Positions 1 to 24,454 of a stretch of DNA of 64,000 nt are shown here, one piece after another. Every line of letters starts with the position of its first letter. Positions within the stretch are counted from its first letter, which is position 1. The notes beneath the pieces are model-generated. The model had not been told where the DNA came from, searched no databases, and saw nothing but the letters and a program-made list of their open reading frames with translations. The DNA is from Candidatus Omnitrophota bacterium (GTDB taxonomy: Bacteria > Omnitrophota > Gorgyraeia > Zapsychrales > Zapsychraceae). Position numbers and translations under genes: made by a program. Location: assembly GCA_029261055.1 (NCBI GenBank), contig JAJDCA010000068.1, positions 133,275 to 197,274 of the forward strand, in the 5' to 3' direction.

Positions 1-691
1 CTGCTTGTACAAATGCTTCGGCGATATCCGTCACATAAGTAAAATCACGCGATTGCTCGCCAGTTCCCACAACTGTGAAAGGTTTGCCCTTTAATTTTTG
101 AGCTAAAAAAACACCAAACACAGCGCCATACGTCCCCGATGTTCGAGAACGCGGACCATATACATTAAAAAGACGCAAAGAAACAACTGGCAAATTATAA
201 ACCTTACTCCAATGCAAAGCTGTTTGTTCGCCCAAATATTTTGTTAAAGCATATGGATATTCCGGATCAGTCGGAGTTGTTTCCTCTGTAGGATAATGCC
301 CCTCAGGAGGAATTCCATAACAGGAGGATGATGCCGTATACATCACTTTTTTAACCTTTGCAAGACGTGCCGCCTCGACAACATTCATGGTGCCCATGAC
401 ATTGGATGCATAATAATTACGTGGATTAACAATGGAAGGAACAATATCTGCCAAAGCCGCCATATGAAAAACTATATCTATCCCTTCAAAGTGGGAAGCA
501 ATACTGTCAAAATTAACAATATCCGCCTCTACCAGCTGAATCTTATCTTTACAATGCTTCAAATTATCAGGTCTTCCTGTCGAAAAATTATCAATCACCG
601 TAACCTTATGATTGTCTGCTAAAAGACGATCCACCAAATGACTGCCAATAAAACCAGCCCCTCCCGTAACAAGAACATTTTTTTGAGTCAT
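1..691 (-). CDS. NAD-dependent epimerase/dehydratase (UDP-glucuronate decarboxylase/UDP-sugar 4-epimerase-like). Partial: the C-terminal part runs off the window.
   Basis: Reverse translation from 691 gives MTQKNVLVTGGAGFIGSHLVDRLL..., a Rossmann GxxGxxG extended-SDR start. The gene runs past position 1. The ATG overlaps the TGA of the upstream gene (ATGA). Confidence 0.7.
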   Translation of the reverse strand, partial: MTQKNVLVTGGAGFIGSHLVDRLLADNHKVTVIDNFSTGRPDNLKHCKDKIQLVEADIVNFDSIASHFEGIDIVFHMAALADIVPSIVNPRNYYASNVMGTMNVVEAARLAKVKKVMYTASSSCYGIPPEGHYPTEETTPTDPEYPYALTKYLGEQTALHWSKVYNLPVVSLRLFNVYGPRSRTSGTYGAVFGVFLAQKLKGKPFTVVGTGEQSRDFTYVTDIAEAFVQA

Positions 692-2373: not shown

Positions 2374-2970
2374 TTATTTCTGGGCAAATCCACATTGAAC
2401 TTCTCGTGAGTTCCCTACATGATTCATAAAAACATCATCCTGGGCCAATGCTTCAATAAGGTTAATTGTCTGCTGAGCCTCTGGAACAGGCTTTATATTT
2501 TCTTTACATATCATTAAAACCCCATTCATCTTTTGAGAAGGAGGTTTATCAATATAGGTAATATGACAATCGCTGATGCCATTTTCTTTAAGAACCATTT
2601 CAATAAGCATGGCAAAATCCGACTTTCCAAAAATAATAAAAATCCTTTCCCCTTCTTCATAAAATTTCAGCACTATTTTTTTAATTCTTTCTTTAATAAG
2701 ACTAATGGAATTAATAGTGTTCAGGGTATACTTAACCGATTTACGCATTTTTTCCATAATTCCTTTTGGGGTAAGGAGATATTTAGCCTTTTTCTTATTA
2801 AGTTGGGTGATACGGATGAATCCTTTGGAAATAAGCCTACGAATAAGCATGTTCGTTTGACCTAAGGAAAGGTCCATCTGGAGGGATAGGTCTCGCTGAT
2901 TGGAACCCAAATGGGCACCAATAATATTGATGAGTTCAAATTCTCTTTCGTCTAAAACGTCTTTAGGCAT
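2374..2970 (-). CDS. winged-helix transcriptional regulator (MarR/Lrp-like N-terminal HTH) with a C-terminal domain of unknown function
   Basis: N-terminal SNQRDLSLQMDLSLGQTNMLIRRLISKGFI is wHTH-like. Sits inside the glycan locus. Confidence 0.4.
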   Translation of the reverse strand: MPKDVLDEREFELINIIGAHLGSNQRDLSLQMDLSLGQTNMLIRRLISKGFIRITQLNKKKAKYLLTPKGIMEKMRKSVKYTLNTINSISLIKERIKKIVLKFYEEGERIFIIFGKSDFAMLIEMVLKENGISDCHITYIDKPPSQKMNGVLMICKENIKPVPEAQQTINLIEALAQDDVFMNHVGNSREVQCGFAQK

Positions 2971-3053
2971 AAGAAGTTATCACTAAATAACACGTAATTT
3001 GTTCAATAATTGAACGTATTATAAATCCTTAATGCCTTCTGTCAAGCACAAAC

Positions 3054-4808
3054 TTAAAACACCCGTAAATTCCTCAAATGATCCGCCTTCTCTTTTGGAC
3101 GTCCCTGCAAATATTGCTGACTCAATATAAGCATCACCGCACAATCCTGATACCCCTGCTTAAGCTGATCTTGTAATACTTTCCCATCATCAATCTGTCC
3201 GGAAAGCAAAGGAAGGTAAATAATCTTGGATGAGCTAATATACTTTATAGCATGTTCTGGTTTCTGCTTTAAAGCCTTGGTAAGCACATCGACCGCCTTC
3301 GCATATTCCTTTTGTTTAAAATAAATTGTTCCCAAATTATGATAAAACCAAAAAAATCTCGGCTCCATCTCAATAGCTTTACGATAAGCCACCACAGAAC
3401 CCTCCACCTTGCCTAAATGATACAAACAAAACCCTAATACCCCATGAGCATCCGGCCGATTAGGAATATATTGAATAATTTTTTGATAATAACGTTCATA
3501 TTTTTCTAGTTTACTTTTATTTATTTCTCCTGCCATTTTCGAAATTTGAAATAAATATTCATAAGATGCCGGCTGAAGACGATTTAATGTTTGATTCCGA
3601 GCTCGTTTTTTGAAATCACCGTAATTAATTATAAAATTTCCTATTAAAAAGAAACTCATTAAAATAATGCTGCTCAACCGAATCCAGTTCCACCATGGCA
3701 TAGACTTCAGACGAAACTGCTTTATTCTTTCCCAATAAAATGGGACAGCTACTGCTAAAGAAATCATAAAAACAGGAAAAATCAATTCATAATACCGATA
3801 CTGTCGATGCGTAAAATAAACCCCCCGAGATATCGTGATATAATTAATTATCGGCGATATAAAGTATAAAATAAATATCGTTAAAAATATGACGGTATGA
3901 CTGCGCAACTTCTGATAAGAGACCGTCATAAGGATTCCTAAAAATGATAAAATTGGCACCATGCGCATTGCTTTCCAAAATTGGAAAAAATTAGCTAAAT
4001 ACTGATCAAAGCTTTCCTGTCCGGAAACATGACTATATGTTCCTACTTTTCCTAAAATGTAATACAAACAAATAATCCCCGGAAAAATAAAAATTTTTAA
4101 AATCTTTTTTACTACGTCCCAAAAATTCTCTTTATACATCAATTCGACGACCATAAAACTCAATGCAAAACTAAACATCTGAAATATTGAAACAGTTGCT
4201 GTTAAAGCCAAAAAGCTAAACAATATAATTAAAACACGATGGGCTTTTGGATAACATACATACCAGACCATCGTCAAAAACCACAATCCATTCCAAAGCG
4301 CATAAACTCTCATTTCTATAGAAAAAAAGAAATTATGTAATCGAAAATAATAATCTCCCAAAGCACACAAAAGAAGCCCTGCTTGTAAACACTTCAAGAA
4401 AAAATTCACCTTTCCCTGGCCCGGTTTAAAATATATAAGAAAAATAACAATTAATCCTGATAGTAAACTGGAAAAGATAGGGTGCAGGCGATAATACACA
4501 TTAAACGGCAAACCAAAAGAGTGCAGAGGTCCTCTTAATTGATCCCAAACCTTTAAAAAAACATAATCCAACGGTGCTGGACTTAGCTGTCCACTAGCCC
4601 CATTGACCAAAATATCCCAATAAGCAGATTTCTGAACACTATACTCCAGGCTCCAGCTTTCATCCAACCACAAATCCTTTTTCTCAGCTGAATCAAAAGC
4701 TTGCATAGCAAAAGTAACGGCTATCCAAATTGAAAAAACAAGAAACAGGCTGCCAATGTATTTACAATGGCCACCCTTCAATACTAATTTATGGTTAACT
4801 TCAGACAT
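3054..4808 (-). CDS. polytopic membrane protein (about 12 TM) with C-terminal TPR repeats; GT-C/TMTC-like glycosyltransferase candidate
   Basis: Long hydrophobic N-terminal ~430 aa with DE..Y / PLDYVFLKVW-like loop motifs seen in PMT/ArnT GT-C enzymes. C-terminal ~150 aa TPR module is paralogous to those of ORFs 12092..13099 and 38876..42103. Confidence 0.45.
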   Translation of the reverse strand: MSEVNHKLVLKGGHCKYIGSLFLVFSIWIAVTFAMQAFDSAEKKDLWLDESWSLEYSVQKSAYWDILVNGASGQLSPAPLDYVFLKVWDQLRGPLHSFGLPFNVYYRLHPIFSSLLSGLIVIFLIYFKPGQGKVNFFLKCLQAGLLLCALGDYYFRLHNFFFSIEMRVYALWNGLWFLTMVWYVCYPKAHRVLIILFSFLALTATVSIFQMFSFALSFMVVELMYKENFWDVVKKILKIFIFPGIICLYYILGKVGTYSHVSGQESFDQYLANFFQFWKAMRMVPILSFLGILMTVSYQKLRSHTVIFLTIFILYFISPIINYITISRGVYFTHRQYRYYELIFPVFMISLAVAVPFYWERIKQFRLKSMPWWNWIRLSSIILMSFFLIGNFIINYGDFKKRARNQTLNRLQPASYEYLFQISKMAGEINKSKLEKYERYYQKIIQYIPNRPDAHGVLGFCLYHLGKVEGSVVAYRKAIEMEPRFFWFYHNLGTIYFKQKEYAKAVDVLTKALKQKPEHAIKYISSSKIIYLPLLSGQIDDGKVLQDQLKQGYQDCAVMLILSQQYLQGRPKEKADHLRNLRVF

Positions 4809-5928
4809 TTAAAAAGGCAGCTTCAAAACATTCCAATGCCGCTAAAATTATTTTATCCATATCATAATAAGCATAATCGCCCAAACGACCGCCAAAAATA
4901 ACATTACCCTCTGCTTTAGCAAGCGACTTGTATTTTTTTAAATTTGATTTATCTTCCTGAGTATGAACAGGATAATAAGGTTCCATGGGATTATTACAAG
5001 ATGTTTCGAAAAAAATTAATGATTGTTTTTTTGCATAATTTCTTTCTAGATGAAGATGCTGAGGTTCGTGAATACGCGTATATGGCACATCTAAATCCGC
5101 ATAATTCATTACAGAGGTTCCTTGATAATCTTCCACATCAACAACTTTTTTCTCAAGGGATATAGATCGCCATGCCAATTTACCATATCTATAATCAAAA
5201 TAGCGATCAATCGGCCCTGTATAAATGATTTTCTTTTTCACCTTAAACTCATCACGACATTCAAAATAATCACAATTTAACCTAATACGAATGCCCGATG
5301 AATTTAACATATTCTCAAAAATCATTGTGTACCCTCCTGAAGGTACCCCCTGCCACACGGCATCATGAAAATAATCTTCGCAATAATTAAACCTGACAGG
5401 AAGACGGGCAATAATACTGGCAGGCAAATCCTGAGGATTCTTATCCCATTGCTTAATCGTATAAGATTTAATAAAAGCTTCGTAAAGAGGCCGGCCAATC
5501 AAACTGATGGCTTTTTCTTCAAAGTTCTTTGGTTCTACGATATTCTCTTTTTCAATTTCTTTCTCTATAAACCTTCTAGCTTCTGTCGGTGTAAAATTTT
5601 TTTCATAAAAAGTATTTATCGTTTCCAAATTAACAGGCATTTGGTAAACGACGCCTTTATATTTTGTTAAAACTTGGTGGTGGTACCCATTAAAAGAAGT
5701 GAACTGTGTAATGTAGTCCCAAACTTTCTGAGAAGATGTATGAAAAATATGCGTTCCATATAGATGATGTTCAATTCCTGTTTCTTGATCTTCTGCTGAA
5801 TAACAATTACCTCCAATATGATCCCGTTTATCAATAACAACAACATTAGCCCCTAATTCATTGGCAATACGTTCAGCCAAAACGCTTCCAAAAAAACCTG
5901 CCCCGACTACAAGGTAATCACATTCCAT
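4801..5928 (-). CDS. glf: UDP-galactopyranose mutase
   Basis: N-terminal FAD fold YLVVGAGFFGSVLAERIA, ~375 aa, and overall motif layout match Glf. Confidence 0.8.
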   Translation of the reverse strand: MECDYLVVGAGFFGSVLAERIANELGANVVVIDKRDHIGGNCYSAEDQETGIEHHLYGTHIFHTSSQKVWDYITQFTSFNGYHHQVLTKYKGVVYQMPVNLETINTFYEKNFTPTEARRFIEKEIEKENIVEPKNFEEKAISLIGRPLYEAFIKSYTIKQWDKNPQDLPASIIARLPVRFNYCEDYFHDAVWQGVPSGGYTMIFENMLNSSGIRIRLNCDYFECRDEFKVKKKIIYTGPIDRYFDYRYGKLAWRSISLEKKVVDVEDYQGTSVMNYADLDVPYTRIHEPQHLHLERNYAKKQSLIFFETSCNNPMEPYYPVHTQEDKSNLKKYKSLAKAEGNVIFGGRLGDYAYYDMDKIILAALECFEAAFLNV

Positions 5929-6637
5929 GCTTCAACCCCAATTTCGGACGGCACCACAATACCTGCCAGAAAGATTTTATCGCCACTCTAAAGAGCTTCC
6001 ATTTCACAATAGACACCTCACCTGTCTTCCTCCCCTCATGAAGCACAGGATATTCATAAATACGCACTCTCTCCCTAGATAATACTCCGGAAATAATGAC
6101 ATTAGGGGCAAAGATATGCGAAGGAATTTGAACAATAATTGGGTTTAAAATACTGCTTCGCATCAAACGATAAGGAACATTCACATCTGTTACACCTCGA
6201 CCAAATAATATCCGTACGCTCAATCGAGAAAAAATACTAATACACCATCGCGACACATTTTGGTCTCTCCCCTGCCTTACACCAAACAATACATCGAAAT
6301 CTTTACGTTTATGCCACAAATAAGGAAAATAATCTGGTTTGATTTCATCATCACCATCACACTGAAAAACCCATTGTGCTGTCTCTACAGCTTTTTGATA
6401 ACCTAATAATATCGTCGGCCCATGCCCACTATTTTCTTTATGAATAACCACAACATGCGAATCTCCTTTAAATGCCTCCAACGTTTCCCGCGTCCCGTCT
6501 GTTGACCCATCATTTAAAATGATAATTCGGAATTTTATTTGAAGGCAGGATAGCACGGCCTGCCAGGATTTAACAACCCTTACAACACAAGCTTCTTCGT
6601 TATAAACAGGAATAAGAACCGCAAGATCAAGGGACAT
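5918..6637 (-). CDS. family 2 glycosyltransferase
   Basis: LAVLIPVYNEE ... LNDGSTDGT ... GT-A fold signature (DxD region). Confidence 0.7.
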   Translation of the reverse strand: MSLDLAVLIPVYNEEACVVRVVKSWQAVLSCLQIKFRIIILNDGSTDGTRETLEAFKGDSHVVVIHKENSGHGPTILLGYQKAVETAQWVFQCDGDDEIKPDYFPYLWHKRKDFDVLFGVRQGRDQNVSRWCISIFSRLSVRILFGRGVTDVNVPYRLMRSSILNPIIVQIPSHIFAPNVIISGVLSRERVRIYEYPVLHEGRKTGEVSIVKWKLFRVAIKSFWQVLWCRPKLGLKHGM

Positions 6638-6646
6638 ATGATAAAT

Positions 6647-6995
6647 TCACCACTTAAATTCAACACCTTCTCGATAACATTGGGCGCACATGGGGTTGGC
6701 GGCACGGCCTTTGGTAGTCATCATTTGCCTCATGGCGATGGCGTTGGGGCCGTTCCAGACATCCATCACGTTTGTTTTTCCTACTTCAAATGTTTTATAA
6801 GGTTTACTATCACTCCAAACAACAGCATCACAACAAGGCAGAACATCGCCGTTAAAATTAACTTGCATGCCTTTCCACAACCAGTCACACGATATCTGTA
6901 AAGGAAGTGGATGGCGGCTCCTTGTCTTCCAAACCGCATTTCGGATTCCCAGGACGTATATTCATCATAAGCCCCAAATCATTACAAAATTTACC
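6647..6995 (-). pseudogene. truncated duplicate of the C-terminal SPASM region of the radical SAM gene at 7898..8926
   Basis: 77-aa ORF MWKGMQVNFNGDVLPCCDAVVWSDSKPYKTFEVGKTNVMDVWNGPNAIAMRQMMTTKGRAANPMCAQCYREGVEFKW is ~85% identical to the last 77 aa of the 342-aa rSAM. Nucleotide similarity continues upstream to ~6995 but the frame is broken by an indel (6900-6925 vs 8150-8185). Confidence 0.6.
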
Positions 6996-7016
6996 CACCT
7001 TTAAAAGGCAGATTCT

Positions 7017-7904
7017 TCACTTTTTTCTGGCAACAGAAATCATATTTTCAACGCTTAATTTAAGAGACACATTTGATAACTTTGTCAATTTTAAAAACGT
7101 CCGTAGGAGTTTCTTAAAAAATATTGGTAAGGGTAACATTCGCATAACATGATCTAACTGATACCTGTTTGCAATATTTTTTATACAGCACACTTCAAAA
7201 CCATTCTTTTCTAAAATCTTACGCATAGTTTTTTTATCCCATAAATGAATATGGGAAATATCATATGTTGATGCTTTATCCCTCAGTACCATTGGAAGAA
7301 AAGATTTAATATCATGATGAATGGCTAAAAGAATTCCGCCTTTCTTTAAATATTGATAAACTATCTGAAGAAATTGATTCGGCTTTACTATATGATCAAA
7401 AACTTGAAAAAAACAAACAGCATCAAAATATTCCCCTGGGAATATACCTTCCTTAAGCTCTGTATTCTTAATTCGATTTTGCAAAAACGAAGGTGCATTA
7501 TTATAAGCCCCCCTGCTTGGTTCAATTCCCCAAACTTCCTTGAACCCATATTTTTTTATTTTATTAAGAAAAAAGCCATCAGCACAACCGATTTCTAACA
7601 AACGCCCTTTTTCATGAATAAAATGCTGCATCTTCTCAAACTGCCCTAAATAATCGGCTACCATGTTTTTTAACTGAGGTTCTTCAATAAATTGACTTTG
7701 ACGATACAACTGCATAATTTTATTTTCCGGAATAATCGGATTAGAATAAACTAATCCGCAATCTACGCATTGAACAACACGAAAATGCATATGGTCAGGA
7801 GTCTTTCGTCCCACAAATTCTAATGATTCAATTTCAAACTTCTCTGAAAAACGCACTTTAAATTTATTTTTCTCACCACAAATAGGACAATGAATGTTTA
7901 CCAT
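7017..7904 (-). CDS. class I SAM-dependent methyltransferase with N-terminal CxxC...CxxC zinc ribbon (sugar C-methyltransferase-like family)
   Basis: HCPICGEK...CVDCGL zinc ribbon, then LLEIGCADGFF (SAM motif I) and LKKGGILLA (motif II-like). Architecture resembles TylCIII/NovU-type C-methyltransferases. Confidence 0.6.
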   Translation of the reverse strand: MVNIHCPICGEKNKFKVRFSEKFEIESLEFVGRKTPDHMHFRVVQCVDCGLVYSNPIIPENKIMQLYRQSQFIEEPQLKNMVADYLGQFEKMQHFIHEKGRLLEIGCADGFFLNKIKKYGFKEVWGIEPSRGAYNNAPSFLQNRIKNTELKEGIFPGEYFDAVCFFQVFDHIVKPNQFLQIVYQYLKKGGILLAIHHDIKSFLPMVLRDKASTYDISHIHLWDKKTMRKILEKNGFEVCCIKNIANRYQLDHVMRMLPLPIFFKKLLRTFLKLTKLSNVSLKLSVENMISVARKK

Positions 7905-8926
7905 TTAAATTCTACCCCCCGCCTATAACATTGCGCACACATGGGGTGGGCGGCACGGCCTTGGGTAGTCATCATCTTTCTCATCGCAATGGAGTTGGGA
8001 CCGTTCCACACATCCATCACGTTTGTTTTCCCCACTTCAAATATCTCATAAGGTTTACTACCGCTCCAAATAACGGTTTCACAGCAAGGAAGAATATCCC
8101 CATTAAAGTTGACTTGCATACCCTTCCACAACCAGTCACAGGATATCTGCAAAGGAAGCGGCTCCAACGATAACGGAGGCTCTTTATCTTCTAATCCACA
8201 TTTCGGATTTCCAGGGCGTATATTCATCATAAGCCCTAAATCATCACAAAACTTACGGACATCGTCTACCTGATGTTTGTTATATTGATACAGAATAAAA
8301 TCAATCAAAATAAGCATATTGTATTTTCCTTTTCTGTTAGCCCTGGCCAGCATACGAATATTTTCTTTAAGCTTCTCTACATGACCATAACGAATTTGGA
8401 TACTATAAACATCCTGCGTGAATCCGCCGAGTTGAATTTTAATAAAATCTATCCCCGCTGTTAAAATTTGGGTAATGTTTTCTTGAGTAAATTTCAATCC
8501 ATTAGTCGAAATCATCGTAGCAACCCCGCGGTCTGTCGCAAAACGGATAACCTTATGCAAGTCTTTATACAGCAATGGCTCCCCATTGGTATATAAGACA
8601 GCAATTAACACACGACTTTTGACCTGATCGATAATTTCCTGAGCCATTTCTAATGGCATCTTTCCCTTTTTAATAGCCCCTTTTGACCCTTCGGGATTTA
8701 TATCATGAATAACACCCTTAGCATCCCGACAAAACAAACAGCCGGCATTACATTCATTCCATAATTCTAAACTTAAAATAAAAGGAGACTTGGCAGATTT
8801 TTTAGATTTTAATACATAGGCGAGACTGCAAACAAAAACATTAAAAACTTTCTTTATAGTAATTTTTTTCTGCTTCAAAACCCTAAGCAATAAATTCCAT
8901 TTCAAATAATTATATCGATTACGCAT
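7898..8926 (-). CDS. radical SAM enzyme with C-terminal SPASM domain
   Basis: CNAGCLFCR (CxxxCxxC) near the N-terminus. C-terminal Cys-rich CxxxxCxxxC...C..C (..LPCCETVIW...HPMCAQCY) typical of SPASM/twitch auxiliary clusters. Confidence 0.75.
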   Translation of the reverse strand: MRNRYNYLKWNLLLRVLKQKKITIKKVFNVFVCSLAYVLKSKKSAKSPFILSLELWNECNAGCLFCRDAKGVIHDINPEGSKGAIKKGKMPLEMAQEIIDQVKSRVLIAVLYTNGEPLLYKDLHKVIRFATDRGVATMISTNGLKFTQENITQILTAGIDFIKIQLGGFTQDVYSIQIRYGHVEKLKENIRMLARANRKGKYNMLILIDFILYQYNKHQVDDVRKFCDDLGLMMNIRPGNPKCGLEDKEPPLSLEPLPLQISCDWLWKGMQVNFNGDILPCCETVIWSGSKPYEIFEVGKTNVMDVWNGPNSIAMRKMMTTQGRAAHPMCAQCYRRGVEFKW

Positions 8927-8937: not shown

Positions 8938-9942
8938 TTACCTTTCTGCAAAATCTTCTCGCTGTATAGAAGAAGAGCTCTGCGGAAAACCAAAAGTATT
9001 TTTGATAATATAATTTGGCCGTCCCTTACTCTGTTCATAAATAGAATTTAAATATACCCCCATGATACCAATACAAAACAATTGCACCCCACCCATAAAT
9101 AACACTACAATCATCAATGGCGTCCATCTTGGGATAGAATTCCCTTGAATATAGTTAATAAATACATAACCCATAAGGACAAAATCAATGATGAGTGCCA
9201 AAAAACCCAAAAAAGAAGCTATTTTTAGTGGCGCTGAAGAAAATGAAATTAACGCCGAACCAAAAAAGTTATTCAGAACTTTCGGGCTTAAGACATGAAA
9301 TTTAGATCGGCCTGAAAAACGCGCATCCCTATCGTACTTAACATATTTCTGTTTAAATCCCAACCAACATACTAATCCGCGCATGAAAGGATGGATCTCT
9401 CGCATTTTAACAAGGTGCTCAACAGCTCGACTGGAAAGCAATTTAAAATCACCTGCTTCTACAGGGAGATATAACGATGAAAATTTATTGAGAATAAGAT
9501 AACCAATACGCGTAATAAAAAGCTTAAATCTTGATTCGCCTTTACGAGAACGCCGTACCGTATGGACAATGTCTACATCCTCTTCACTTTGCCATTCACG
9601 CAATAAATCTGAAATAACCTCAGGTGGATCCTGTAAATCCGTATCCATATAAACAACGGCATCTCCCGAAGCATACTTCATGCCAGCTAAAACACACGGT
9701 GACACGCCAAAACATCGAGACATATTAATAATACGGATATCTTCTTGTTCTTTGGAGTGTTCAATAAGAATATTTTTGGAATTATCCGTAGAATCGTCGT
9801 TAACAAAAATTAATTCATGCGATGTAATAACGCCCTTGCTCTGCTCCTGAGTAAGGACAGCGCGGACACGTTTAATTAATTCCGGAAGGACGTCTTCTTC
9901 ATTACGAAATGAAAAGACAACGGAAAGTATTTTAGAATTCAA
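8938..9942 (-). CDS. polyprenyl-phosphate glycosyltransferase (GT2, GtrB/ArnC/DPM1-like) with C-terminal TM helices
   Basis: LSVVFSFRNEE...VNDDSTDNS GT2 N-terminus, plus two C-terminal hydrophobic helices as in GtrB/ArnC. Confidence 0.7.
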   Translation of the reverse strand: MNSKILSVVFSFRNEEDVLPELIKRVRAVLTQEQSKGVITSHELIFVNDDSTDNSKNILIEHSKEQEDIRIINMSRCFGVSPCVLAGMKYASGDAVVYMDTDLQDPPEVISDLLREWQSEEDVDIVHTVRRSRKGESRFKLFITRIGYLILNKFSSLYLPVEAGDFKLLSSRAVEHLVKMREIHPFMRGLVCWLGFKQKYVKYDRDARFSGRSKFHVLSPKVLNNFFGSALISFSSAPLKIASFLGFLALIIDFVLMGYVFINYIQGNSIPRWTPLMIVVLFMGGVQLFCIGIMGVYLNSIYEQSKGRPNYIIKNTFGFPQSSSSIQREDFAER

Positions 9943-10428: not shown

Positions 10429-11937
10429 ATGAATATTCTCTATGTCGTTGACACATTTTCCGTTATTGAACCCATGGGTGTCTTGCATCTTTCGGCAATT
10501 TCTAAAGCCCAGGGCCATAAAAGTTTTATTGCTGCTATTGAAAAAAATAATGTCGAAGAAAAAATTGGACAACACAATATCGATTGTGTTGCCTTCAGTT
10601 TCATGTCTACCGAAGCACGAGGATTCCATCAACTAGCTGAACGCCTGCGCGCACTTCATCCTAATCTTCCCATAATCGCCGGAGGTCCTCACCCAACCTA
10701 TTACCCTCAAATCATTGATTCCTGGCCTATTGATGCTGTTATTGTTGGAGAAGGCGAAGCCGTTTATCCTGAAATAATTAAAAATTTATCTGAAGGCAAA
10801 GATATCTCCCACATTTCCAGCGTTCAAACAAAACACCATAAAAACTCTCAAAAGCTCCTTGTCGAAAATCTAGACGACATCCCTTTTGCAGACCGAGAGC
10901 TATTAAAGGATGTTGCTCCTTACAAATATGTACGCATGAAAACATTTTTTGGAACACGTGGTTGCCCATATAGCTGTAGTTATTGCTTTAACAGTGCATA
11001 TAATAAACTCTACAAAGGGAAAGGCTTAATTATCCGACGGCGATCTGTAGAGAATTTAGTAAGTGAGATTGAACAGGTCGTTCAAAAATATCCTACCGAT
11101 TTTGTCCGTTTCGGTGATGACACCTTTGTTATGAAATACGATGAATGGGTAGAAGAATTTGTAGAGAAATATAAAAAACGTGTCGGACTTCCTTTTTATT
11201 TCCTTATCCACCCAAACCTTGTTACTAAAAAACTCATCGGGGCTATGCGTGAAGCAGGCGCTCATTCTGTAATGATGGGGGTTGAATCTGGTGTGGAACG
11301 TCTTCGTCGTAAAGTCTTAGACCGATATGTCTCAGATGATACGATGGTGGAAGCTTTTAATATCCTCAGAGATAACAAAATTAAAGTTTTCAGCAACACA
11401 ATTCTGGGACTACCAGCTTCAACCTTAAAGGATGACCTTACCTCTTTAGAATTTACCTTAAAATGTAATCCAACTTATTCCGGATTTACAGTTTTCACAC
11501 CATTTCCCGGTACCGGCCTTTATAAATACAGCATTGAAAATGGTTACTTGGATGATGTTGATTCTTTCGAAGATTCTATCCCCAACAGCATGCAGCAAGG
11601 GTCTTGTTTAAAACACATTACTGACAAACAAAAAGACATCCACAAGAACATCTTAGTTCTAGCTCCCGTTGCTAACTTCATGCCATTTCTAAAAAACCTT
11701 ATTGTCAAACACCTCATTTATTGGAAACCTAATAAACTTTTTGATACTATTGGTTTTTTTGTCCGCAACTATTGCAACACACTTATTTTTCCGTTTGGAA
11801 AATCTTTATCAACATTTATCCTTCTCTTTTACAAAGTTCTTCGCATTGATAAAAAGAACTATACGACCCAAACATCTAAAAAACCTTCCGTAGAGACTTC
11901 CTCTTCTACGGCTAGTAGTCAAGAAAATCGCCTTTGA
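10429..11937 (+). CDS. cobalamin (B12)-binding domain radical SAM enzyme (class B radical SAM methyltransferase-like)
   Basis: N-terminal B12-binding Rossmann-like region (LYVVDTF...CVAFSFMSTE...PIIAGGPHPT), then the radical SAM CPYSCSYC motif. ~500 aa, as in class B rSAMs. Confidence 0.75.
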   Translation: MNILYVVDTFSVIEPMGVLHLSAISKAQGHKSFIAAIEKNNVEEKIGQHNIDCVAFSFMSTEARGFHQLAERLRALHPNLPIIAGGPHPTYYPQIIDSWPIDAVIVGEGEAVYPEIIKNLSEGKDISHISSVQTKHHKNSQKLLVENLDDIPFADRELLKDVAPYKYVRMKTFFGTRGCPYSCSYCFNSAYNKLYKGKGLIIRRRSVENLVSEIEQVVQKYPTDFVRFGDDTFVMKYDEWVEEFVEKYKKRVGLPFYFLIHPNLVTKKLIGAMREAGAHSVMMGVESGVERLRRKVLDRYVSDDTMVEAFNILRDNKIKVFSNTILGLPASTLKDDLTSLEFTLKCNPTYSGFTVFTPFPGTGLYKYSIENGYLDDVDSFEDSIPNSMQQGSCLKHITDKQKDIHKNILVLAPVANFMPFLKNLIVKHLIYWKPNKLFDTIGFFVRNYCNTLIFPFGKSLSTFILLFYKVLRIDKKNYTTQTSKKPSVETSSSTASSQENRL

Positions 11938-12091: not shown

Positions 12092-13099
12092 CTAAAATAT
12101 CTTGGTACCGATCTCTTCCCCTTTTGAAACTGCCGATTGCTTTGCCTTTTGCAAAAATGTTGCTTGTGATAAAAAACGTTTTGAATTTTCTTCCATTCCC
12201 ATAGCCTTAAGACTCATACCCAAATAATAAAATGGCTCATACTGACCTTTATTACTCTCAATATATTTCTGAAAGAAAACTACCGATTTTTCATGCTCCT
12301 CAAGTAAAAAAGCTGCTAACCCTGCATAATAATAAAAGAAACCCTGATCTTCTAACCCTGATGAAATCGCATAATTCGCCATTTGTACCATAACAGAAAA
12401 ATTTTTCAAATAGTACTGACTCAACAACATCAATTTAAAAGCATCTGTATAACTTGTTTTTAAACCCTGATTCATCCATCCTTCCACGTTTTCGCCTTCA
12501 CCCCATATCTGACGATAAATGCCTACTGTATTAATAATTTTTAATGTAATCGCCGGCTTTAATTGAAAAGCCTTTTGAAGTATTGCGTAGGCTTTTTCAT
12601 ACTCTTTTCCATGAAAATAAATAACGCCAAGATTATAAAATGGCCAAAAATTATGAGAGTTTAGCCTAATTGATTCTTGATAAGACTTAACCGCTTTCTC
12701 ATCCTGGCTATTATGGTAATAACAAAATCCTAAAATGTCATGAATACCTGACACGTCAGGATAAAATACAGATGCTTTTTCATAATAATCTATCCTGCTG
12801 CAAGGGCCTGTCCCGCGTAGAAAACCATGCCCTACTTTAGAATTATTGGCTATTTGTTGCACCATATGCGCAAAATTTGGTTTGGAATAGCTTAAAGTAA
12901 CAACCTTAGATTTTTCTTTAACATCATCATGCTGCTTTATAAGCCTCGAAAAACTAAAATTATTTGGAAATAATTCCTGACCTCTACTATAATGAATCAA
13001 TACATAAACAATGTAGGCCGATAAAATAAATAAAAAACAACCTATCGTGGCCCATCTGACTATATACACAATGGTTTTTAATTTTTCTTTAATTGCCAT
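12092..13099 (-). CDS. membrane-anchored TPR-repeat protein (paralogue of the C-terminal modules of 3054..4808 and 38876..42103)
   Basis: N-terminal TM helix. TPR segments YYEKASVFYPDVSGIHDILGFCYYH... closely parallel YYQKIIQYIPNRPDAHGVLGFCLYH... and YYEKINQYMPSRSAAYGLLGFCHYH... Confidence 0.6.
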   Translation of the reverse strand: MAIKEKLKTIVYIVRWATIGCFLFILSAYIVYVLIHYSRGQELFPNNFSFSRLIKQHDDVKEKSKVVTLSYSKPNFAHMVQQIANNSKVGHGFLRGTGPCSRIDYYEKASVFYPDVSGIHDILGFCYYHNSQDEKAVKSYQESIRLNSHNFWPFYNLGVIYFHGKEYEKAYAILQKAFQLKPAITLKIINTVGIYRQIWGEGENVEGWMNQGLKTSYTDAFKLMLLSQYYLKNFSVMVQMANYAISSGLEDQGFFYYYAGLAAFLLEEHEKSVVFFQKYIESNKGQYEPFYYLGMSLKAMGMEENSKRFLSQATFLQKAKQSAVSKGEEIGTKIF

Positions 13100-13115: not shown

Positions 13116-14558
13116 ATGCTAAAAATTTCCCGCAGCATTATCCTGGCCTTCACTTTTTCAATCTTATACTGGATTTACGTGGGGTACGTTTCCCAAATTG
13201 CGTTAGCTAATGATGCGATTGCTTACGACAACCTTGGCTCATTAATCTACAATAATGGTTGGGGCGATTTTTTTAGAACCGGCCCTCATCGGGAACCATT
13301 TTATCCTTTTCTGATATCTGTCACCATGAGCTTGGGGAAACTTTTTTCTATTTCCTATCACATTCCCCAAAAAATCATTCAGTTTTCTTTTTTACTTTTA
13401 ACACAAATTCTTTCCTTAATCATCCTTAAAAAATTAAAAATAAATAATTTTTTATGCGCCTGCATCATTTTGTACATTGGATTTTCTCCGGCTTTCGTTA
13501 ATTCATCCCTAAGTCTATTTTCTGAAATCGCTGCCTACCCTTTTATTCTACTTACCGTCATCTTTGCCAGCACAAGTTACAAAAACATCTTAATTACAAA
13601 AAAAGGTCGTTCCACCCAAAAATTATCACTGCTTTTAGCCTTCTTGTTAGGAACAAGCATCTTAATGATCACTTTTGTGAAAGGTATTTTTGAATTATTC
13701 ATCCCTTTTTTATTGATCCCTTTTTGCATTATGCTTATAAAAACATACCGGCTGAAACAAAAAGAAGCATCTAATAATATCCTTGCCTTTATTATCATTG
13801 CAGCTCTAAGCTTTTATTTACCGTTTAATGCATATAAACTAGCCAATAAAAAATATAATGGTAATTTCACATTTACAACACGCGGAAGTGAAGTTCTTTA
13901 TGCGGAAACCAAACGACGCATGGACAATTTTTCCGCAAAAAACTGGTTAACAGCCCTTGTGTACGTTCCTGGGCACAGATACTGTGAACCTCTTTTTGGT
14001 AATGCCGCTTGTGCGTACTGGACGCCTCTTATCGACATCAATAAGCTACTCTACAATCATAAAGATGAAATTTCAGACGCCCCTACCACAAGCAATGCGT
14101 TTAAAAAAATACTCCTAATGAAAACATTCAAAAGAATCTTTAAAAACCCTTTTGCCTATACCTTAATGACGGCTACGGTGGGACTAAAACTATTTTTTTG
14201 GGAATCGTCCAAACTAGGACATGTGGCTTACCCGGACTGGATGGATAAAATTTTCTGGAACCCCGGACTTGAAAATATTCTCAACTTCAGCGTTGCCTTA
14301 CTTTCTTTTCTTGCTTTTCTCTATCTAATAAAATTTATTTGGCAGCATCGCAAAAATATTTTTGCTTTCAAAACACAAAACAACGAAGTCACTTGTTACC
14401 TTTTATTTGTTTTTCTCATTCTTTCTGTATTTATGACAATCTCATCTCTCTTCATTATCCTCACCAGGTACATGCTCCCCATCGCCCCGCTTTATCTCAT
14501 CATCATTGCTTTTACTATCCAACAAATTGTAAATCGCATCAAATCCCGTCACTCCTGA
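13116..14558 (+). CDS. GT-C family glycosyltransferase (PMT_2/ArnT-like, GT39/GT83-type), 480 aa polytopic membrane protein
   Basis: Loop motif NDAIAYDNLG...GPHREPFYPFLIS resembles the DE..Y....PPLYYW first-loop signature of ArnT/PMT enzymes. At least 11 TM segments. Confidence 0.55.
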   Translation: MLKISRSIILAFTFSILYWIYVGYVSQIALANDAIAYDNLGSLIYNNGWGDFFRTGPHREPFYPFLISVTMSLGKLFSISYHIPQKIIQFSFLLLTQILSLIILKKLKINNFLCACIILYIGFSPAFVNSSLSLFSEIAAYPFILLTVIFASTSYKNILITKKGRSTQKLSLLLAFLLGTSILMITFVKGIFELFIPFLLIPFCIMLIKTYRLKQKEASNNILAFIIIAALSFYLPFNAYKLANKKYNGNFTFTTRGSEVLYAETKRRMDNFSAKNWLTALVYVPGHRYCEPLFGNAACAYWTPLIDINKLLYNHKDEISDAPTTSNAFKKILLMKTFKRIFKNPFAYTLMTATVGLKLFFWESSKLGHVAYPDWMDKIFWNPGLENILNFSVALLSFLAFLYLIKFIWQHRKNIFAFKTQNNEVTCYLLFVFLILSVFMTISSLFIILTRYMLPIAPLYLIIIAFTIQQIVNRIKSRHS

Positions 14559-14946: not shown

Positions 14947-15540
14947 CTAATATTCAATCCCTGGCTGAGCTTTGATGCCTTGTTGGTAAGGATGTTTAAT
15001 ACTTTGCATTTCTGTGACTAAATCAGCAATATTGATTAATTTCTTTGGCGCGCCGCCTCCGGTGAGAATAACATGCTTAAGCGGTGGCTTATTTTTTAAG
15101 GCTTCAATAATTTCATCGGGATCCAGAAAATTAAATTTCATCACATAATTAATCTCATCAAAAATTACAAGAAAATGCTCATCATCCTGCAACACCTCTT
15201 TACATTTGGCCCAAGCCTTCTTTGCCGTTTTGACATCTGCATCAAAATTTTGAGTATCCCACGTAAAACCATCACCAATGGCATGCATCTGACAAAGATC
15301 GGGAAACTTCTTAAAAAACTTGGATTCCCCTGTTTGCCACTTCCCCTTAATAAATTGAACAATCGCCACTTTCTTTCCGCGTCCCATCGCGCGTAAGGCC
15401 GTACCAAAGGCAGCTGTAGATTTCCCCTTACCGTTCCCCGTATGCACCATAATCAATCCTTTTCGAATCGACTTCTTAATGTCTTTATGTTTTCGAGGAG
15501 ATTTATCTTGAACTTTATTTTTGTTTATTTTTTGTGTCAT
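14947..15540 (-). CDS. cobO: cob(I)yrinic acid a,c-diamide / cob(I)alamin adenosyltransferase (CobA/CobO/BtuR family)
   Basis: GLIMVHTGNGKGKSTAAFGTALRAMGRGKKVAIVQFIKG is nearly the BtuR/CobA P-loop signature. Confidence 0.85.
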   Translation of the reverse strand: MTQKINKNKVQDKSPRKHKDIKKSIRKGLIMVHTGNGKGKSTAAFGTALRAMGRGKKVAIVQFIKGKWQTGESKFFKKFPDLCQMHAIGDGFTWDTQNFDADVKTAKKAWAKCKEVLQDDEHFLVIFDEINYVMKFNFLDPDEIIEALKNKPPLKHVILTGGGAPKKLINIADLVTEMQSIKHPYQQGIKAQPGIEY

Positions 15541-15543
15541 TGG

Positions 15544-16479
15544 CTACCTCCATACAACCATCATAAAACAAAATATCACTGTGACCCACGCAGAAGCCAT
15601 CATCAATCGTATGCTTTTGTTTATGTGTTCTTTACGTAAAACCTGAATATTTGAACCCAAATATGTTTTCTTTAATTCTTTTCCTTCGTAATTATTAGCG
15701 CCTCCTAATTGCACATCCAGAGCGCCGGCAAAGGCTGCTTCCGGGATATCACTAATATGCTTAATCTTAATAAACTCCTTAACTCCTTCTTTCATAGCCC
15801 CTTTAACATTATTCTTTGTCATCCATGCCGCTGCTGCAATAAAGAAATACGACAATCTCGACGGAATCCAATTAACAACATCATCGATCTTGGCGGAAAA
15901 ATAACCAAATTTGGCATAACGTTTGTTAAGATGTCCAACCATAGAGTCCAGCGTATTAACGGCTTTATACGCTAAGGCCAACGGAGCTCCGCCAATCGCC
16001 GCGTAAAATAAAGGCGCAATGATACCGTCCACGGTGCTTTCCGCTACAGTCTCAACCGTGGCTCGCACCACTTCCCTTTCATCCAAAGTCTTCGTATCCC
16101 GCCCCACGATTCTGGCAACATCCAGCCGCGCTTTTATTAAATCATTATTTTGCAAATCATTATGTATCTGAACCGCCTCTTTTCGCAAATCATGCACAGA
16201 AATAGCGGTATAAATTCCCAACATATTGACAACCCAAGCCACCGTAGGATGAATCATTGTGCCAATATGCAGAAAATAAAAAACCAACACATACACAAAA
16301 ACGGGCAAACTTATGGCTAATACACCCCCGGCTAAATATTCATTCTTTATCGCCTTCCGATAAAAATCTTCCAACTTTTCAATCGCTTGTCCAATTAGAC
16401 GCGCAGGATGAAATGCGTAAACAGGATCACCAATCCATAAATCTGTTACAAATGCAAAAAATATTCCGGATGCCATCAT
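15544..16479 (-). CDS. cbiB: adenosylcobinamide-phosphate synthase (CbiB/CobD)
   Basis: WIGDPVYAFHPARLIGQ N-terminal signature; ~310 aa membrane protein. Confidence 0.85.
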   Translation of the reverse strand: MMASGIFFAFVTDLWIGDPVYAFHPARLIGQAIEKLEDFYRKAIKNEYLAGGVLAISLPVFVYVLVFYFLHIGTMIHPTVAWVVNMLGIYTAISVHDLRKEAVQIHNDLQNNDLIKARLDVARIVGRDTKTLDEREVVRATVETVAESTVDGIIAPLFYAAIGGAPLALAYKAVNTLDSMVGHLNKRYAKFGYFSAKIDDVVNWIPSRLSYFFIAAAAWMTKNNVKGAMKEGVKEFIKIKHISDIPEAAFAGALDVQLGGANNYEGKELKKTYLGSNIQVLRKEHINKSIRLMMASAWVTVIFCFMMVVWR

Positions 16480-16481
16480 CG

Positions 16482-17573: not shown

Positions 17574-17594
17574 AAATTTATTACCCCTAGTGAC

Positions 17595-17709
17595 GCGAAA
17601 TCGCTTTTAAGCATAGATTAACACATTCCGCTCAGAGGAGATCTCGTTCTGCTCGATCTCCAATTCGCTGCATGCATTAATCTATGCTTGGAGCGATTAC
17701 GAATTAAGC
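17595..17709. repeat. multi-stem palindromic element A (13-bp perfect inverted repeat aagcatagattaa/ttaatctatgctt plus nested ggagatc/gatctcc hairpin)
   Basis: Read directly from sequence; lies in the 319-bp gap between cobS and cobD. Confidence 0.6.
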
Positions 17710-17744
17710 AGCAATAATTCCCTTATTTACTATGACTCTTAATC

Positions 17745-17883: not shown

Positions 17884-17892
17884 TTGAATAGA

Positions 17893-18648: not shown

Positions 18649-18667
18649 CGCATCCTCGGACAACTTC

Positions 18668-21588: not shown

Positions 21589-21608
21589 GCACTGATTTCT
21601 TCAAAAAT

Positions 21609-24244: not shown

Positions 24245-24256
24245 TTATTAATCCCT

Positions 24257-24442: not shown

Positions 24443-24454
24443 ATCACCCCTCCT

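Follow-up and report, generated by a model that had tools for sequence, protein, structure and literature searches.

Radical SAM enzymes that carry SPASM or twitch domains mostly mature peptides. To our knowledge, radical SAM enzymes that modify sugars come almost exclusively from antibiotic pathways, where their substrates are soluble, and the Gtr/Arn-type lipid-carrier glycosylation systems that we know of use conventional tailoring enzymes. Precedents for tailoring a sugar while it is attached to its lipid are the ArnD deformylase and the DprE (mycobacterial DprE1/DprE2) and ORF13 epimerases. ArnA and ArnB, which feed ArnC, are the model for a role in supplying the donor. Radical SAM enzymes are also known to act on other isoprenoids (Tes/GDGT-MAS, HpnH, HpnP, and HpnR). 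PseB yields a 4-keto sugar, and TcaB9-like enzymes use substrates of this type. In three-component systems, auxiliary enzymes act on the lipid-linked sugar, and polyprenyl-phosphoribose systems with auxiliary epimerases have been described (PMC11127046). Two radical SAM enzymes, Cds and HpnJ, have been assigned to lipid-linked sugars on genetic grounds (PMC13459092). Full-text literature searches turned up no paper in which GtrB, Und-P, or GT-C pathways are connected with radical SAM enzymes.

The locus described here lies in a 64-kb stretch of DNA (the window) from a Candidatus Omnitrophota bacterium. The original prediction singled out two minus-strand genes, and both lie at exactly the coordinates it gave: one for a radical SAM enzyme of 342 aa (7898..8926) and one for a methyltransferase of 295 aa (7017..7904), overlapping by 7 nt as proposed (…AAATGGTAA…). 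The operon was also said to be tightly packed. This is not uniformly so, as a 379-bp spacer (6638..7016) separates the methyltransferase gene from the next GT2 gene. The neighbors named at that time (Glf, PseB, a SIS protein, and two GT2s) were recovered by Pfam and NCBIfam searches. Glf, PseB, and the SIS protein make a weak argument for function, since their genes are not conserved with the radical SAM family. Overlooked at that stage were the gene for a putative GtrB-type GT2 upstream, a B12 radical SAM gene, and a decayed 3′ copy of the radical SAM gene at 6646..6994.

The 342-aa protein matches the Pfam models Radical_SAM (PF04055, residues 55-207, E = 6.7e-14, 52.8 bits versus a cutoff of 29.5) and SPASM (residues 263-334, E = 8.6e-10). 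In an alignment of 26 family sequences the CX3CX2C motif (C59/C63/C66) does not vary, which places the protein in the radical SAM superfamily, and the NGEP SAM motif is also invariant. Six conserved cysteines follow the radical SAM core (C227, C263, C281, C282, C330, and C333). The auxiliary-cluster cysteines C263, C281, C330, and C333 are invariant in the same alignment and form a BtrN-like C…C…CxxC pattern, and C227 and C282 are extra invariant cysteines. The protein ends 9 residues past C333, much as BtrN does, and belongs to the twitch subclass. A full SPASM domain of the seven- or eight-cysteine kind is absent: There is no CX2CX5CX3C motif and nothing beyond the 9 residues that follow CxxC. 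The Pfam SPASM match arises because only the portion common to twitch domains scores. Of the earlier label “radical SAM/SPASM,” the first half therefore stands (Pfam, CX3CX2C), whereas the second gives way to a truncated BtrN-type twitch domain. Residues 1-48 form a conserved basic N-terminal extension of two helices that are only moderately amphipathic, and no transmembrane segment was found in the protein.

When the family profile was searched against the PDB, BtrN was the best solved match (E = 4.5e-11, 45.6 bits), and the alignment extends over the core as well as the twitch domain. Residues 261-339 align with residues 186-260 of the BtrN chain in the twitch region, and the auxiliary-cluster ligands coincide. 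The carbohydrate-modifying role suggested in the original prediction gains support, in that the carbohydrate dehydrogenase BtrN is the closest solved relative by profile and all four auxiliary-cluster cysteines align. The kinship is distant and visible at the profile level only, which leaves the enzyme outside the BtrN orthologous group, and the window contains no 2-DOS or butirosin genes. An AF2 model of the enzyme (pLDDT 83.6) shows alternating β/α elements. Foldseek searches with this model place the peptide-modifying enzyme SuiB level with DesII, BlsE, and BtrN (E about 1e-9, TM 0.5-0.6). In NCBIfam scans, neither the enzyme nor ten deeper relatives reach a curated cutoff. At least 158 full-length homologs share 52-68% identity with the enzyme, mostly from Omnitrophota MAGs, which far exceeds chance. 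A GT2-GT2-radical SAM/SPASM protein (P0330) was considered as family evidence and rejected as too distant (136 bits). Judged from sequence, 7898..8926 encodes a twitch enzyme that resembles BtrN and has a single auxiliary cluster, and none of the 158 close homologs in its family is characterized.

Directly upstream of the twitch gene, on the same minus strand, lies the gene for a 334-aa GT2 (8938..9942). Its product matches GtrB (5EKP) over the full length (residues 6-319, E = 4.4e-65) and ArnC with E = 2e-27, and its NCBIfam matches to PgfS and ArnC fall below cutoff. Two C-terminal TM helices are indicated by strongly hydrophobic segments (residues 236-266 and 273-299). The protein is a predicted polyprenyl-phosphate glycosyltransferase of the GtrB/ArnC type. 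A GtrB-type GT2 is encoded in 24 of 27 non-redundant loci of the radical SAM family, and in 21 its gene is directly upstream of the radical SAM gene and on the same strand. All other neighbors of this GT2-radical SAM pair vary among loci. Because a GT2 for lipid-carrier loading almost always precedes the radical SAM gene, the enzyme most likely tailors a surface sugar, rather than maturing a peptide.

A second radical SAM enzyme (502 aa) is encoded divergently from the twitch gene, on the plus strand (10429..11937). It matches the Pfam models B12-binding (E = 1.4e-17; PF02310, 64.1 bits, cutoff 32.1) and Radical_SAM (E = 2e-19; PF04055, 70.8 bits), and is a predicted class B (cobalamin-dependent) radical SAM enzyme. 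No equivalog model in NCBIfam reaches its cutoff with this protein; HpnJ is the second-best model (100 versus a 578-bit cutoff), and HpnR is also matched. Orthologs with 55-64% identity adjoin the pair in four further non-redundant loci (L003/L004, L017, L018, and L022). In several loci (L003 and L033), the pair is accompanied by membrane proteins and the B12 radical SAM enzyme only, and other nucleotide-sugar genes are absent. The two radical SAM enzymes are also found as one polypeptide. P0251 (831 aa, full length) is an in-frame fusion of the B12 and twitch enzymes, and P0258 is a second case that has no Met at the junction. A further apparent fusion, P0243, was downgraded as a possible artifact, since its contig carries an obvious frameshift. 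In the fusion proteins the basic N-terminal helices of the twitch enzyme directly adjoin the hydrophobic tail at the C terminus of the B12 part, which hints at an assembly at the membrane surface. From neighborhoods and fusions, we conclude that the B12 radical SAM gene belongs to the same system as the twitch enzyme. An 18-kb cobalamin salvage and uptake cluster (cofactor supply) adjoins the locus.

The 295-aa product of 7017..7904 is an accessory member of the system. It matches Methyltransf_23 (Pfam, E = 2e-21), has a conserved LEIGC SAM motif, and ends about 45 residues past its class I SAM domain. The zinc ribbon expected from the original prediction is real, because the four N-terminal cysteines (C6, C9, C46, and C49) are invariant or nearly so across 27 homologs. 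The earlier label “C-methyltransferase-like” has a basis as well, since the family profile matches TcaB9, KijD1, and TylC3 over about 210 residues. In the alignment with TcaB9 (3NDI; query residues 37-248), DHI pairs with CHI and YDIEH with YD-EH, so that H171 of the family corresponds to TcaB9 H181 and YDIEH to Y222/E224/H225. The motif Glu of TcaB9 is replaced by Ser in the copy from the window. The best solved match is 3CC8, a methyltransferase with no characterized function. Neither PF08484 (NDP-sugar-binding) nor PF08421 matches the protein at E < 0.01, and it is therefore not filed as a TcaB9-type member and only resembles that family. The missing NDP-sugar domain fits a substrate other than a nucleotide sugar. 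The order GT2, radical SAM gene, methyltransferase ortholog recurs in L032 and L033, both of which lack PseB, and a Methyltransf_23 gene is directly 3′ of a deep-branching fused enzyme in L036. The closest homolog (63%) comes from a nucleotide-sugar locus (L034), where its neighbor is a radical SAM enzyme of another type. A methyltransferase is present in only a subset of the radical SAM family loci, and most lack one. Since the B12 enzyme and the methyltransferase each occur in a minority of loci, they cannot define the core reaction.

The decayed copy lies on the minus strand (6646..6994) and was recognized from direct repeats, alignment, reading frames, and substitution rates. It corresponds to codons ∼226-342 of a second radical SAM allele, is truncated at its 5′ end, and is frameshifted by an 11-nt deletion. 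The direct repeats (D1/D2) share 83-87% nucleotide identity, and divergence from the intact gene is almost all synonymous (dS 1.28, dN 0.053, dN/dS 0.04 over 113 codons). This pseudogene remnant is the scar of a recent recombination, in which the methyltransferase was introduced through replacement of a cassette. The methyltransferase and the present radical SAM allele appear to have come jointly as a foreign cassette that displaced the resident allele. We asked whether a 77-aa ORF (6647..6880) within the 379-bp spacer might encode a precursor peptide or a twitch protein of its own, and rejected both, because it is the out-of-frame tail of this truncated copy.

Several other genes of the locus encode membrane proteins. 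The product of 13116..14558 (plus strand, 480 aa) has about 10-11 TM helices and no Pfam match. Its AF2 model (pLDDT 89) gives 16 top Foldseek PDB matches that are all GT-C proteins (AglB, Pmt, ArnT, and STT3), with probabilities of 0.98-1.0, but their E-values (1e-3 or worse) and TM scores are weak. D33 in the first loop is invariant among homologs, and homologs adjoin the pair in L014 and L026. On the model, this protein is a candidate user of the lipid-linked sugar, and thus a candidate periplasmic transferase, with a predicted GT-C-like fold. The product of 3054..4808 (minus strand, 584 aa), with at least seven hydrophobic segments and C-terminal TPR repeats (hydropathy and Pfam), is a candidate second periplasmic transferase; hhalign finds no relation between the two protein families. 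Large polytopic membrane proteins are encoded within 6 kb of the pair in 22 of 30 loci. A single-pass TPR protein of 335 aa (12092..13099, minus strand; TPR by Pfam), anchored by one N-terminal TM segment, has weak homologs in L024 and L026 and is a possible acceptor-binding or scaffold component.

Glf, a UDP-galactopyranose mutase (4801..5928, minus strand), scores 352 bits with TIGR00031 versus a cutoff of 303.75, and PseB scores 485 bits with TIGR03589 versus a cutoff of 408. A short soluble GT2 of 239 aa (5918..6637, minus strand; Glycos_transf_2, 3e-19), whose gene overlaps glf, resembles ArnC (9e-16) and PpgS (2.7e-07), with all NCBIfam matches below cutoff. Its gene is the first of a second sub-module. 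A MarR-family EPS-associated regulator (2374..2970, minus strand; TIGR04176, 2.3e-14, below cutoff) has homologs with 50-54% identity near the pair in L007 and L026. Further neighbors are a GmhA-like SIS protein and a UXS-like SDR at the start of the window. No flippase of the GtrA, MATE, or ArnEF type was found among the ORFs between 0.7 and 15 kb, and one may be encoded elsewhere. The unassigned ORFs of 80-150 aa in this region are antisense inside other genes or DUF4346 only. Scans for promoters and terminators gave chance-level results, Rfam detected no cobalamin riboswitch and no other RNA family, and ARAGORN detected no tRNA.

We consider the chances about even that the twitch enzyme tailors a sugar linked to its carrier lipid in a periplasmic glycosylation pathway of the Gtr/Arn style. 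If this hypothesis is true, then the GtrB-type GT2, whose class is assigned by homology, would work on the cytoplasmic side of the membrane and charge polyprenyl (undecaprenyl) phosphate with a hexose taken from a UDP-sugar. The twitch enzyme would cleave SAM reductively and take a hydrogen atom from a C-H of the lipid-linked monosaccharide. A second electron could then pass to the auxiliary [4Fe-4S] cluster, which would leave a keto-sugar; alternatively, a hydrogen returned by one of the conserved free cysteines (C227 or C282) would yield an epimer. The B12 radical SAM enzyme might act on the same substrate, most plausibly by C-methylation of an unactivated carbon, and the TcaB9-like methyltransferase might methylate the carbon beside the new keto group via an enolate. 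The modified sugar would finally be flipped and passed by GT-C-type proteins (13116..14558 and possibly 3054..4808, with fold support that covers the former only) to a periplasmic glycan or protein. The absence of a visible gene for a GtrA- or MATE-type flippase in the locus counts against a pathway of this style. A bolder version, which we offer tentatively and regard as somewhat doubtful, is that the twitch and cobalamin enzymes, sometimes fused, together rebuild a monosaccharide on polyprenyl phosphate for GT-C transfer to the Omnitrophota surface. The product of such paired radical tailoring could be a keto, epimerized, C-methyl-branched, or even ring-contracted sugar.

Other substrates have to be weighed against a lipid-linked sugar. 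It is rather unlikely that the twitch enzyme works on a soluble nucleotide sugar (UDP-Glc or UDP-GlcNAc) and supplies the GT2 with its donor, but adjacency of the two genes fits donor synthesis equally well. The best-scoring sugar-acting relatives, BtrN, DesII, and BlsE, all use soluble substrates, the twitch enzyme has no TM segment, and PseB, Glf, and the UXS-like SDR bring nucleotide-sugar genes into the locus. Donor supply is harder to reconcile with the pairs in L003 and L033 that lack other nucleotide-sugar genes, with the loss of the NDP-sugar-binding domain in the associated methyltransferase family, and with the meeting of basic helices and hydrophobic tail in the fusions. An isoprenoid carrier is central to the proposed pathway, and the two radical SAM enzymes might instead methylate, cross-link, or adenosylate the polyprenyl chain. 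The twitch enzyme has weak sub-threshold likeness to Tes (7e-12), HpnH (2.6e-07), and GDGT-MAS (PDB 7TOL, 2.3e-06), and HpnJ and HpnR are among the models matched by its B12 partner. Lipid enzymes resemble it no more strongly than do dozens of unrelated radical SAM families, however, and all fall far below curated cutoffs. The best solved match is a sugar enzyme, twitch domain included, and the many invariant residues with polar or aromatic side chains (Y, W, R, D, N, Q, and E) would be expected more in a pocket for a carbohydrate than in a tunnel for a hydrocarbon. As the co-occurring TcaB9-like methyltransferase also points toward sugar chemistry, modification of the chain seems very improbable.

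A peptide or protein substrate is hardly credible, whether the enzyme is pictured as a RiPP maturase, an anSME-like formylglycine generator, or a maturase of the neighboring glycosyltransferase. Peptide maturation is the role of most SPASM/twitch enzymes, the highest-ranking structural neighbors include SuiB, SkfB, PqqE, and EpeE, and one homolog is auto-annotated “AslB” by JGI. In the model-based comparison, Foldseek does not set sugar enzymes apart from SuiB, which counts against the lipid-linked-sugar reading. The 77-aa ORF just 3′ of the methyltransferase gene derives from the enzyme's own gene, of which it is a frameshifted remnant, and small ORFs outside the coding regions show no conservation in 30 loci, in agreement with the original prediction that a precursor peptide is lacking; all apparently conserved small ORFs are alternative-frame artifacts within the radical SAM and GT2 genes. 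PqqD/RRE Pfam models do not match at E < 0.01, and RiPP maturase models stay far below cutoff. As to an anSME with a sulfatase target, a counter-case named earlier, about 50 ORFs of the window contain no sulfatase domain, and anSME is absent from the best 25 of 46 sub-threshold NCBIfam hits. With a glycosyltransferase as the sole conserved neighbor, the peptide-maturase reading is already largely refuted. A separate doubt concerns the methyltransferase, which may be a chance neighbor that acts on a different sugar, such as the 4-keto product of PseB. This substrate is of the type used by TcaB9-like enzymes, the remnant shows that the methyltransferase was inserted recently, most family loci lack one, and the closest homolog lies beside another radical SAM type. 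Against these points stand the same gene order in L032 and L033 without PseB, the Methyltransf_23 gene after the fused enzyme in L036, the apparent arrival of the gene in one cassette with the present radical SAM allele, and the overlap of its start with the radical SAM stop codon. We therefore regard a chance association as decidedly unlikely.

Should the twitch and cobalamin enzymes indeed rebuild a lipid-linked sugar together, radical SAM chemistry would enter Gtr/Arn-type lipid-carrier pathways for the first time, as a kind of glycan tailoring not described before, and would yield sugars beyond the reach of nucleotide-sugar enzymology. A conserved module of GtrB-type synthase and twitch enzyme, with or without the B12 enzyme or the methyltransferase, would bring radical chemistry to the decoration of periplasmic glycans. 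Such a module predicts unusual branched or oxidized surface sugars in an uncultured phylum with host-dependent lifestyles. The set of two to four genes is compact and suited to heterologous expression. No curated model covers the family, whose close members number at least 158, so that one function would annotate many genes.

Among solved enzymes, the closest counterpart is BtrN, the 2-deoxy-scyllo-inosamine dehydrogenase of butirosin biosynthesis (PDB 4M7T). In both proteins the radical SAM core leads into a twitch domain at the C terminus, which has one auxiliary [4Fe-4S] cluster, their C-x17/18-C … CxxC ligands align, and both end soon past CxxC. BtrN has a substrate that is not a peptide, which is probably also true of the window enzyme. 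Sequence similarity is low, the basic 48-residue extension and the cysteines C227 and C282 distinguish the window family, and Foldseek does not place BtrN above DesII, BlsE, or SuiB. BtrN belongs to an aminoglycoside cluster, whereas the setting of the window family is a surface-glycan locus that also encodes a polyprenyl-phosphate GT2. The NDP-sugar 3-C-methyltransferases TcaB9, KijD1, and TylC3 share with the window methyltransferase an N-terminal Cys4 zinc ribbon, a class I SAM domain, a catalytic His, and the Y-D-E-H motif. They have an additional C-terminal NDP-sugar domain of ∼160 residues (PF08484) that is missing here, and are accordingly longer (about 415 versus 295 aa).

The three-component systems (GtrA/GtrB/GtrC and ArnC/ArnD/ArnEF/ArnT) resemble the locus in having a GT2 of the GtrB/ArnC type for the loading of polyprenyl phosphate with a monosaccharide; large polytopic membrane proteins, one of them with a predicted GT-C-like fold, are encoded alongside. 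They differ in that the candidate tailoring enzymes of the window are radical SAM proteins (twitch and B12), a kind that full-text literature searches did not turn up for any such system, and in that no flippase gene is recognized in the locus. HpnJ (hopanoid cyclitol ether) and Cds (calditol synthase), both assigned genetically, parallel the proposed pathway in applying radical chemistry to a sugar head group attached to an isoprenoid, with HpnJ acting downstream from the GT2 HpnI. Hopanoid and GDGT genes are absent from the locus. In contrast to the membrane lipid end products of HpnJ and Cds, the carrier here would be polyprenyl phosphate, a donor from which the tailored sugar is transferred.

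The radical SAM enzyme gene (7898..8926, 342 aa) and the methyltransferase gene that follows it (7017..7904, 295 aa) are both on the minus strand and overlap by 7 nt, so that the methyltransferase start codon falls within the final codons of the gene before it. These positions are exactly as originally predicted, and so are the neighboring genes: Glf and PseB homologs that score above NCBIfam equivalog cutoffs, a GmhA-like SIS protein, and two GT2 glycosyltransferases. A MarR-EPS regulator is also present nearby. Just upstream of its gene is a perfect 12/12 sigma-70 consensus (TTGACA, 16 nt, TATAAT; 3018..3045, minus strand), in a region where the promoter-like count is at chance level. Immediately downstream of the SIS gene is the start of an NAD-dependent sugar epimerase/dehydratase gene (1..687, minus strand, beginning MTQKNVLVTGGAGFIGSHLV…), which is cut off by the window start, so the glycan locus reaches beyond the window.

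The 342-aa protein matches Pfam Radical_SAM (6.7e-14) and SPASM (8.6e-10), and every curated NCBIfam model stays far below its cutoff (top match 55.8 bits versus a cutoff of 170). A database search yielded 158 full-length homologs with 52–68% identity, many from Omnitrophota MAGs and all unnamed or generically named. Scanning GTDB species representatives gave 25 loci with the enzyme, labeled Omnitrophota, “uncultured Planctomycetales/Planctomycetia” and, in one instance, Peribacteria. The CX3CX2C motif (C59/C63/C66), an NGEP motif and six later cysteines (C227, C263, C281, C282, C330, and C333) are invariant in a 26-sequence alignment. When the family profile was compared with all PDB sequences, the top match was BtrN (4M7T, E=4.5e-11) in two stretches, one corresponding to the radical SAM core and the other to the twitch domain. 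C263, C281, and C330/C333 align with cysteines of the BtrN SC…PC…LCKNC segments, which are its auxiliary-cluster ligands. This homology identifies the predicted product of 7898..8926 as a BtrN-like twitch radical SAM enzyme. Because the chain ends nine residues past the CxxC, the domain originally labeled SPASM is assigned instead as a twitch domain with a single auxiliary cluster.

An AF2 model of the enzyme is confident (pLDDT 83.6), and Foldseek searches with it do not discriminate among SuiB, DesII, BlsE, BtrN, SkfB, PqqE, and EpeE (∼1e-9 to 1e-7, TM 0.5–0.6). Residues 1–48 form two conserved basic helices that are confidently modeled, and no transmembrane segment was found in the protein. 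Three distant relatives of the twitch family recovered from a representative library (P0319, P0335, and P0340; 1143–1444 aa) are tandem multi-radical-SAM polypeptides, each with four or five separate radical SAM/twitch-like stretches.

The gene neighborhoods of 27 non-redundant loci from other genomes reveal a sole reliable companion, a GT2 of about 325–335 aa with 52–63% identity to the product of 8938..9942 (minus strand). It occurs in 24 of these loci, in 21 of them immediately upstream in the same orientation; two of the three loci that lack it are contigs ending at the radical SAM gene. The 8938..9942 protein matches GtrB over its full length (5EKP, E=4.4e-65; ArnC, 2e-27) and carries two C-terminal TM helices, which together identify it by homology as a predicted polyprenyl-phosphate monosaccharide synthase. 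Comparative genomics establishes synthase and twitch enzyme as an obligate gene pair. The original prediction had argued for action on a carbohydrate from Glf, PseB, and SIS, none of which is conserved with the radical SAM family in the 27 loci. One locus (L005/L006/L012, the context of P0027) is an unusually radical-SAM-rich glycan locus, in which the GT2–twitch pair is accompanied by three different B12 radical SAM paralogs, two short GT2s, a split transketolase, a Methyltransf_23 enzyme, and a YfhO-like membrane protein.

A divergently transcribed gene (10429..11937, plus strand) encodes a cobalamin-binding radical SAM protein, which by homology is a predicted class B radical SAM enzyme. 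Its orthologs (55–64% identity) adjoin the GT2–twitch pair in L003/L004, L017, L018, and L022. A profile search run exhaustively against 1.84 billion representatives returned 184 proteins with E≤1e-30. One of these, P0251 (831 aa, full length), is an in-frame fusion of a B12 radical SAM enzyme with a twitch enzyme of this family, and its B12 part is 31% identical to the 10429..11937 product over 481 residues. P0258 is a second such fusion, whose junction lacks a Met. A third, P0243, was discounted because its contig carries a frameshift. The fusions provide comparative genomic evidence that the two enzymes are functionally coupled.

Directly abutting the glycan locus is an ∼18-kb cluster for cobalamin salvage, remodeling, and uptake (14947..33126, minus strand). 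It encodes CobA/BtuR, CobD, a CobC-like aminotransferase, CobS, CobT, CobU, a phosphatase, a BluB-like nitroreductase, CbiZ, CobQ, CbiA, a BtuCDF-like ABC transporter, TonB, ExbB, and a TonB-dependent receptor. Its presence fits with a B12-dependent partner enzyme. No cobalamin riboswitch was detected in the window at the Rfam gathering threshold.

The 295-aa protein matches Methyltransf_23 (2e-21). In L032 (an 880-kb Omnitrophota contig) and L033, the gene immediately after the radical SAM gene encodes an ortholog with 57–59% identity. Three further cases of this arrangement are suggested by contigs of equal length among the radical SAM and methyltransferase homologs. A Methyltransf_23 gene is also next after the fused enzyme in L036, and comparative genomics thus shows a recurrent succession of twitch enzyme and Methyltransf_23 enzyme. 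The closest methyltransferase homolog (63%) is encoded in L034, a sugar locus with a PMT_2 GT-C gene, after a different radical SAM enzyme of AprD4/HpnJ-like type. No B12-binding Pfam match is recorded for this 414-aa radical SAM enzyme. Upstream are genes for a TPP-dependent enzyme, a DegT aminotransferase, and a GHMP kinase, and an RmlC-like isomerase is encoded just downstream. The segment (L034 5961..9885) is another uncharacterized sugar-tailoring cassette with a radical SAM enzyme and a methyltransferase.

The methyltransferase family conserves the SAM motif and four zinc-ribbon cysteines. Its profile matches best the uncharacterized methyltransferase 3CC8, followed by the NDP-sugar 3-C-methyltransferases TcaB9, KijD1, and TylC3 over ∼210 residues from within the zinc domain. 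In the profile alignment, an invariant “DHI” histidine falls on TcaB9 “CHI” and “YDIEH” on TcaB9 “YD-EH”; the TcaB9 residues matched include the catalytic H181 and Y222/E224/H225 reported from mutagenesis. The homology indicates a putative class I methyltransferase with TcaB9-like motifs. The window copy has Ser in place of the motif Glu. However, the C-terminal NDP-sugar domain of TcaB9-type enzymes is missing (no PF08484 or PF08421 in Pfam). The protein is therefore predicted to resemble C-methyltransferases at the active-site level while falling outside the TcaB9-type family.

A feature missed originally lies in the 379-bp “spacer” that separates the methyltransferase from the next GT2: a 5′-truncated copy of the last ∼117 radical SAM codons (6646..6994, 84% identical), interrupted by an 11-nt deletion. 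Of the 54 differences in the 113 codons compared, 40 are at third positions (dS 1.28, dN 0.053, dN/dS 0.04). This mostly synonymous divergence indicates that the two copies were functional genes of different lineages while they diverged and that one was truncated only later. The simplest history has a foreign radical SAM–methyltransferase cassette recombining into a resident radical SAM–GT2 arrangement, leaving the resident 3′ end behind. A 77-aa ORF in the spacer was considered as a precursor peptide and rejected, since the remnant explains it.

In 22 of 30 loci, one or more genes within 6 kb, often several, encode polytopic proteins of at least 380 aa with at least 7 TM segments. The 480-aa example in the window (13116..14558, plus strand) has no Pfam or PDB sequence match. 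The top 16 PDB matches of its AF2 model (pLDDT 89) are all GT-C glycosyltransferases (AglB, Pmt1/2/4, ArnT, and STT3), with weak E-values, and its first-loop aspartate is invariant. What looks like a second lipid-carrier module (3054..6637, minus strand) comprises a short soluble GT2 (ArnC/PpgS-like, 239 aa), Glf, and a 584-aa polytopic membrane protein with TPR repeats, with mutual overlaps of 11 and 8 nt. It possibly makes and transfers polyprenyl-phosphate-galactofuranose. A “WLDESW” segment after TM1 of the 584-aa protein recalls GT-C loop-1 motifs.

Several features lie farther away. A six-tandem-PKD protein gene (42100..43842, minus strand) overlaps that of a 1075-aa TPR protein (38876..42103, minus strand) by 4 nt; with ExbB-like and VWA proteins nearby, this region is a possible surface or adhesion module. 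At 52698..53444 (minus strand), an ORF that weakly matches an IS200-like Y1 transposase (9.3e-07) adjoins a ComEC-like competence protein gene, and a single ORF that fuses ThiS and ThiG domains (60596..62626, plus strand) is followed by a ThiH/BioB-like radical SAM protein with a BATS domain.

The locus is best explained as a Gtr/Arn-type lipid-carrier glycosylation pathway in which the sugar is tailored by radical SAM enzymes. The twitch enzyme would abstract a hydrogen from an Und-P-linked hexose, giving a keto sugar as for BtrN, or else an epimer if C227 or C282 donates a hydrogen. Once a keto group is present, the methyltransferase could C-methylate the sugar through an enolate. Methylation of an unactivated carbon, or a ring rearrangement, would fall to the B12 enzyme, and GT-C proteins would transfer the modified sugar in the periplasm. 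The main rival is that the radical SAM enzyme acts on a nucleotide sugar, before the GT2 step. Tailoring of lipid-linked sugars has precedent in auxiliary epimerases of three-component pentofuranose systems (PMC11127046), and the radical SAM enzymes Cds and HpnJ are assigned genetically to lipid-linked sugars (PMC13459092). Radical SAM enzymes with SPASM or twitch domains usually mature peptides. Outside coding sequence, the 30 loci share no conserved small ORF, in agreement with the original claim that a precursor peptide is absent, and neither an RRE domain (Pfam) nor, anywhere in the 64-kb window, a sulfatase was found. A peptide maturase is therefore very unlikely.

Full-text literature searches found no paper that joins radical SAM enzymes to GtrB, undecaprenyl-phosphate, or GT-C pathways, and polyprenyl carriers are unmentioned in a review from 2026 on radical SAM enzymes that modify lipids. 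The lipid-carrier module proposed here, whose support is entirely genomic, would combine two known kinds of system: twitch radical SAM enzymes that act on sugars and three-component glycosylation.
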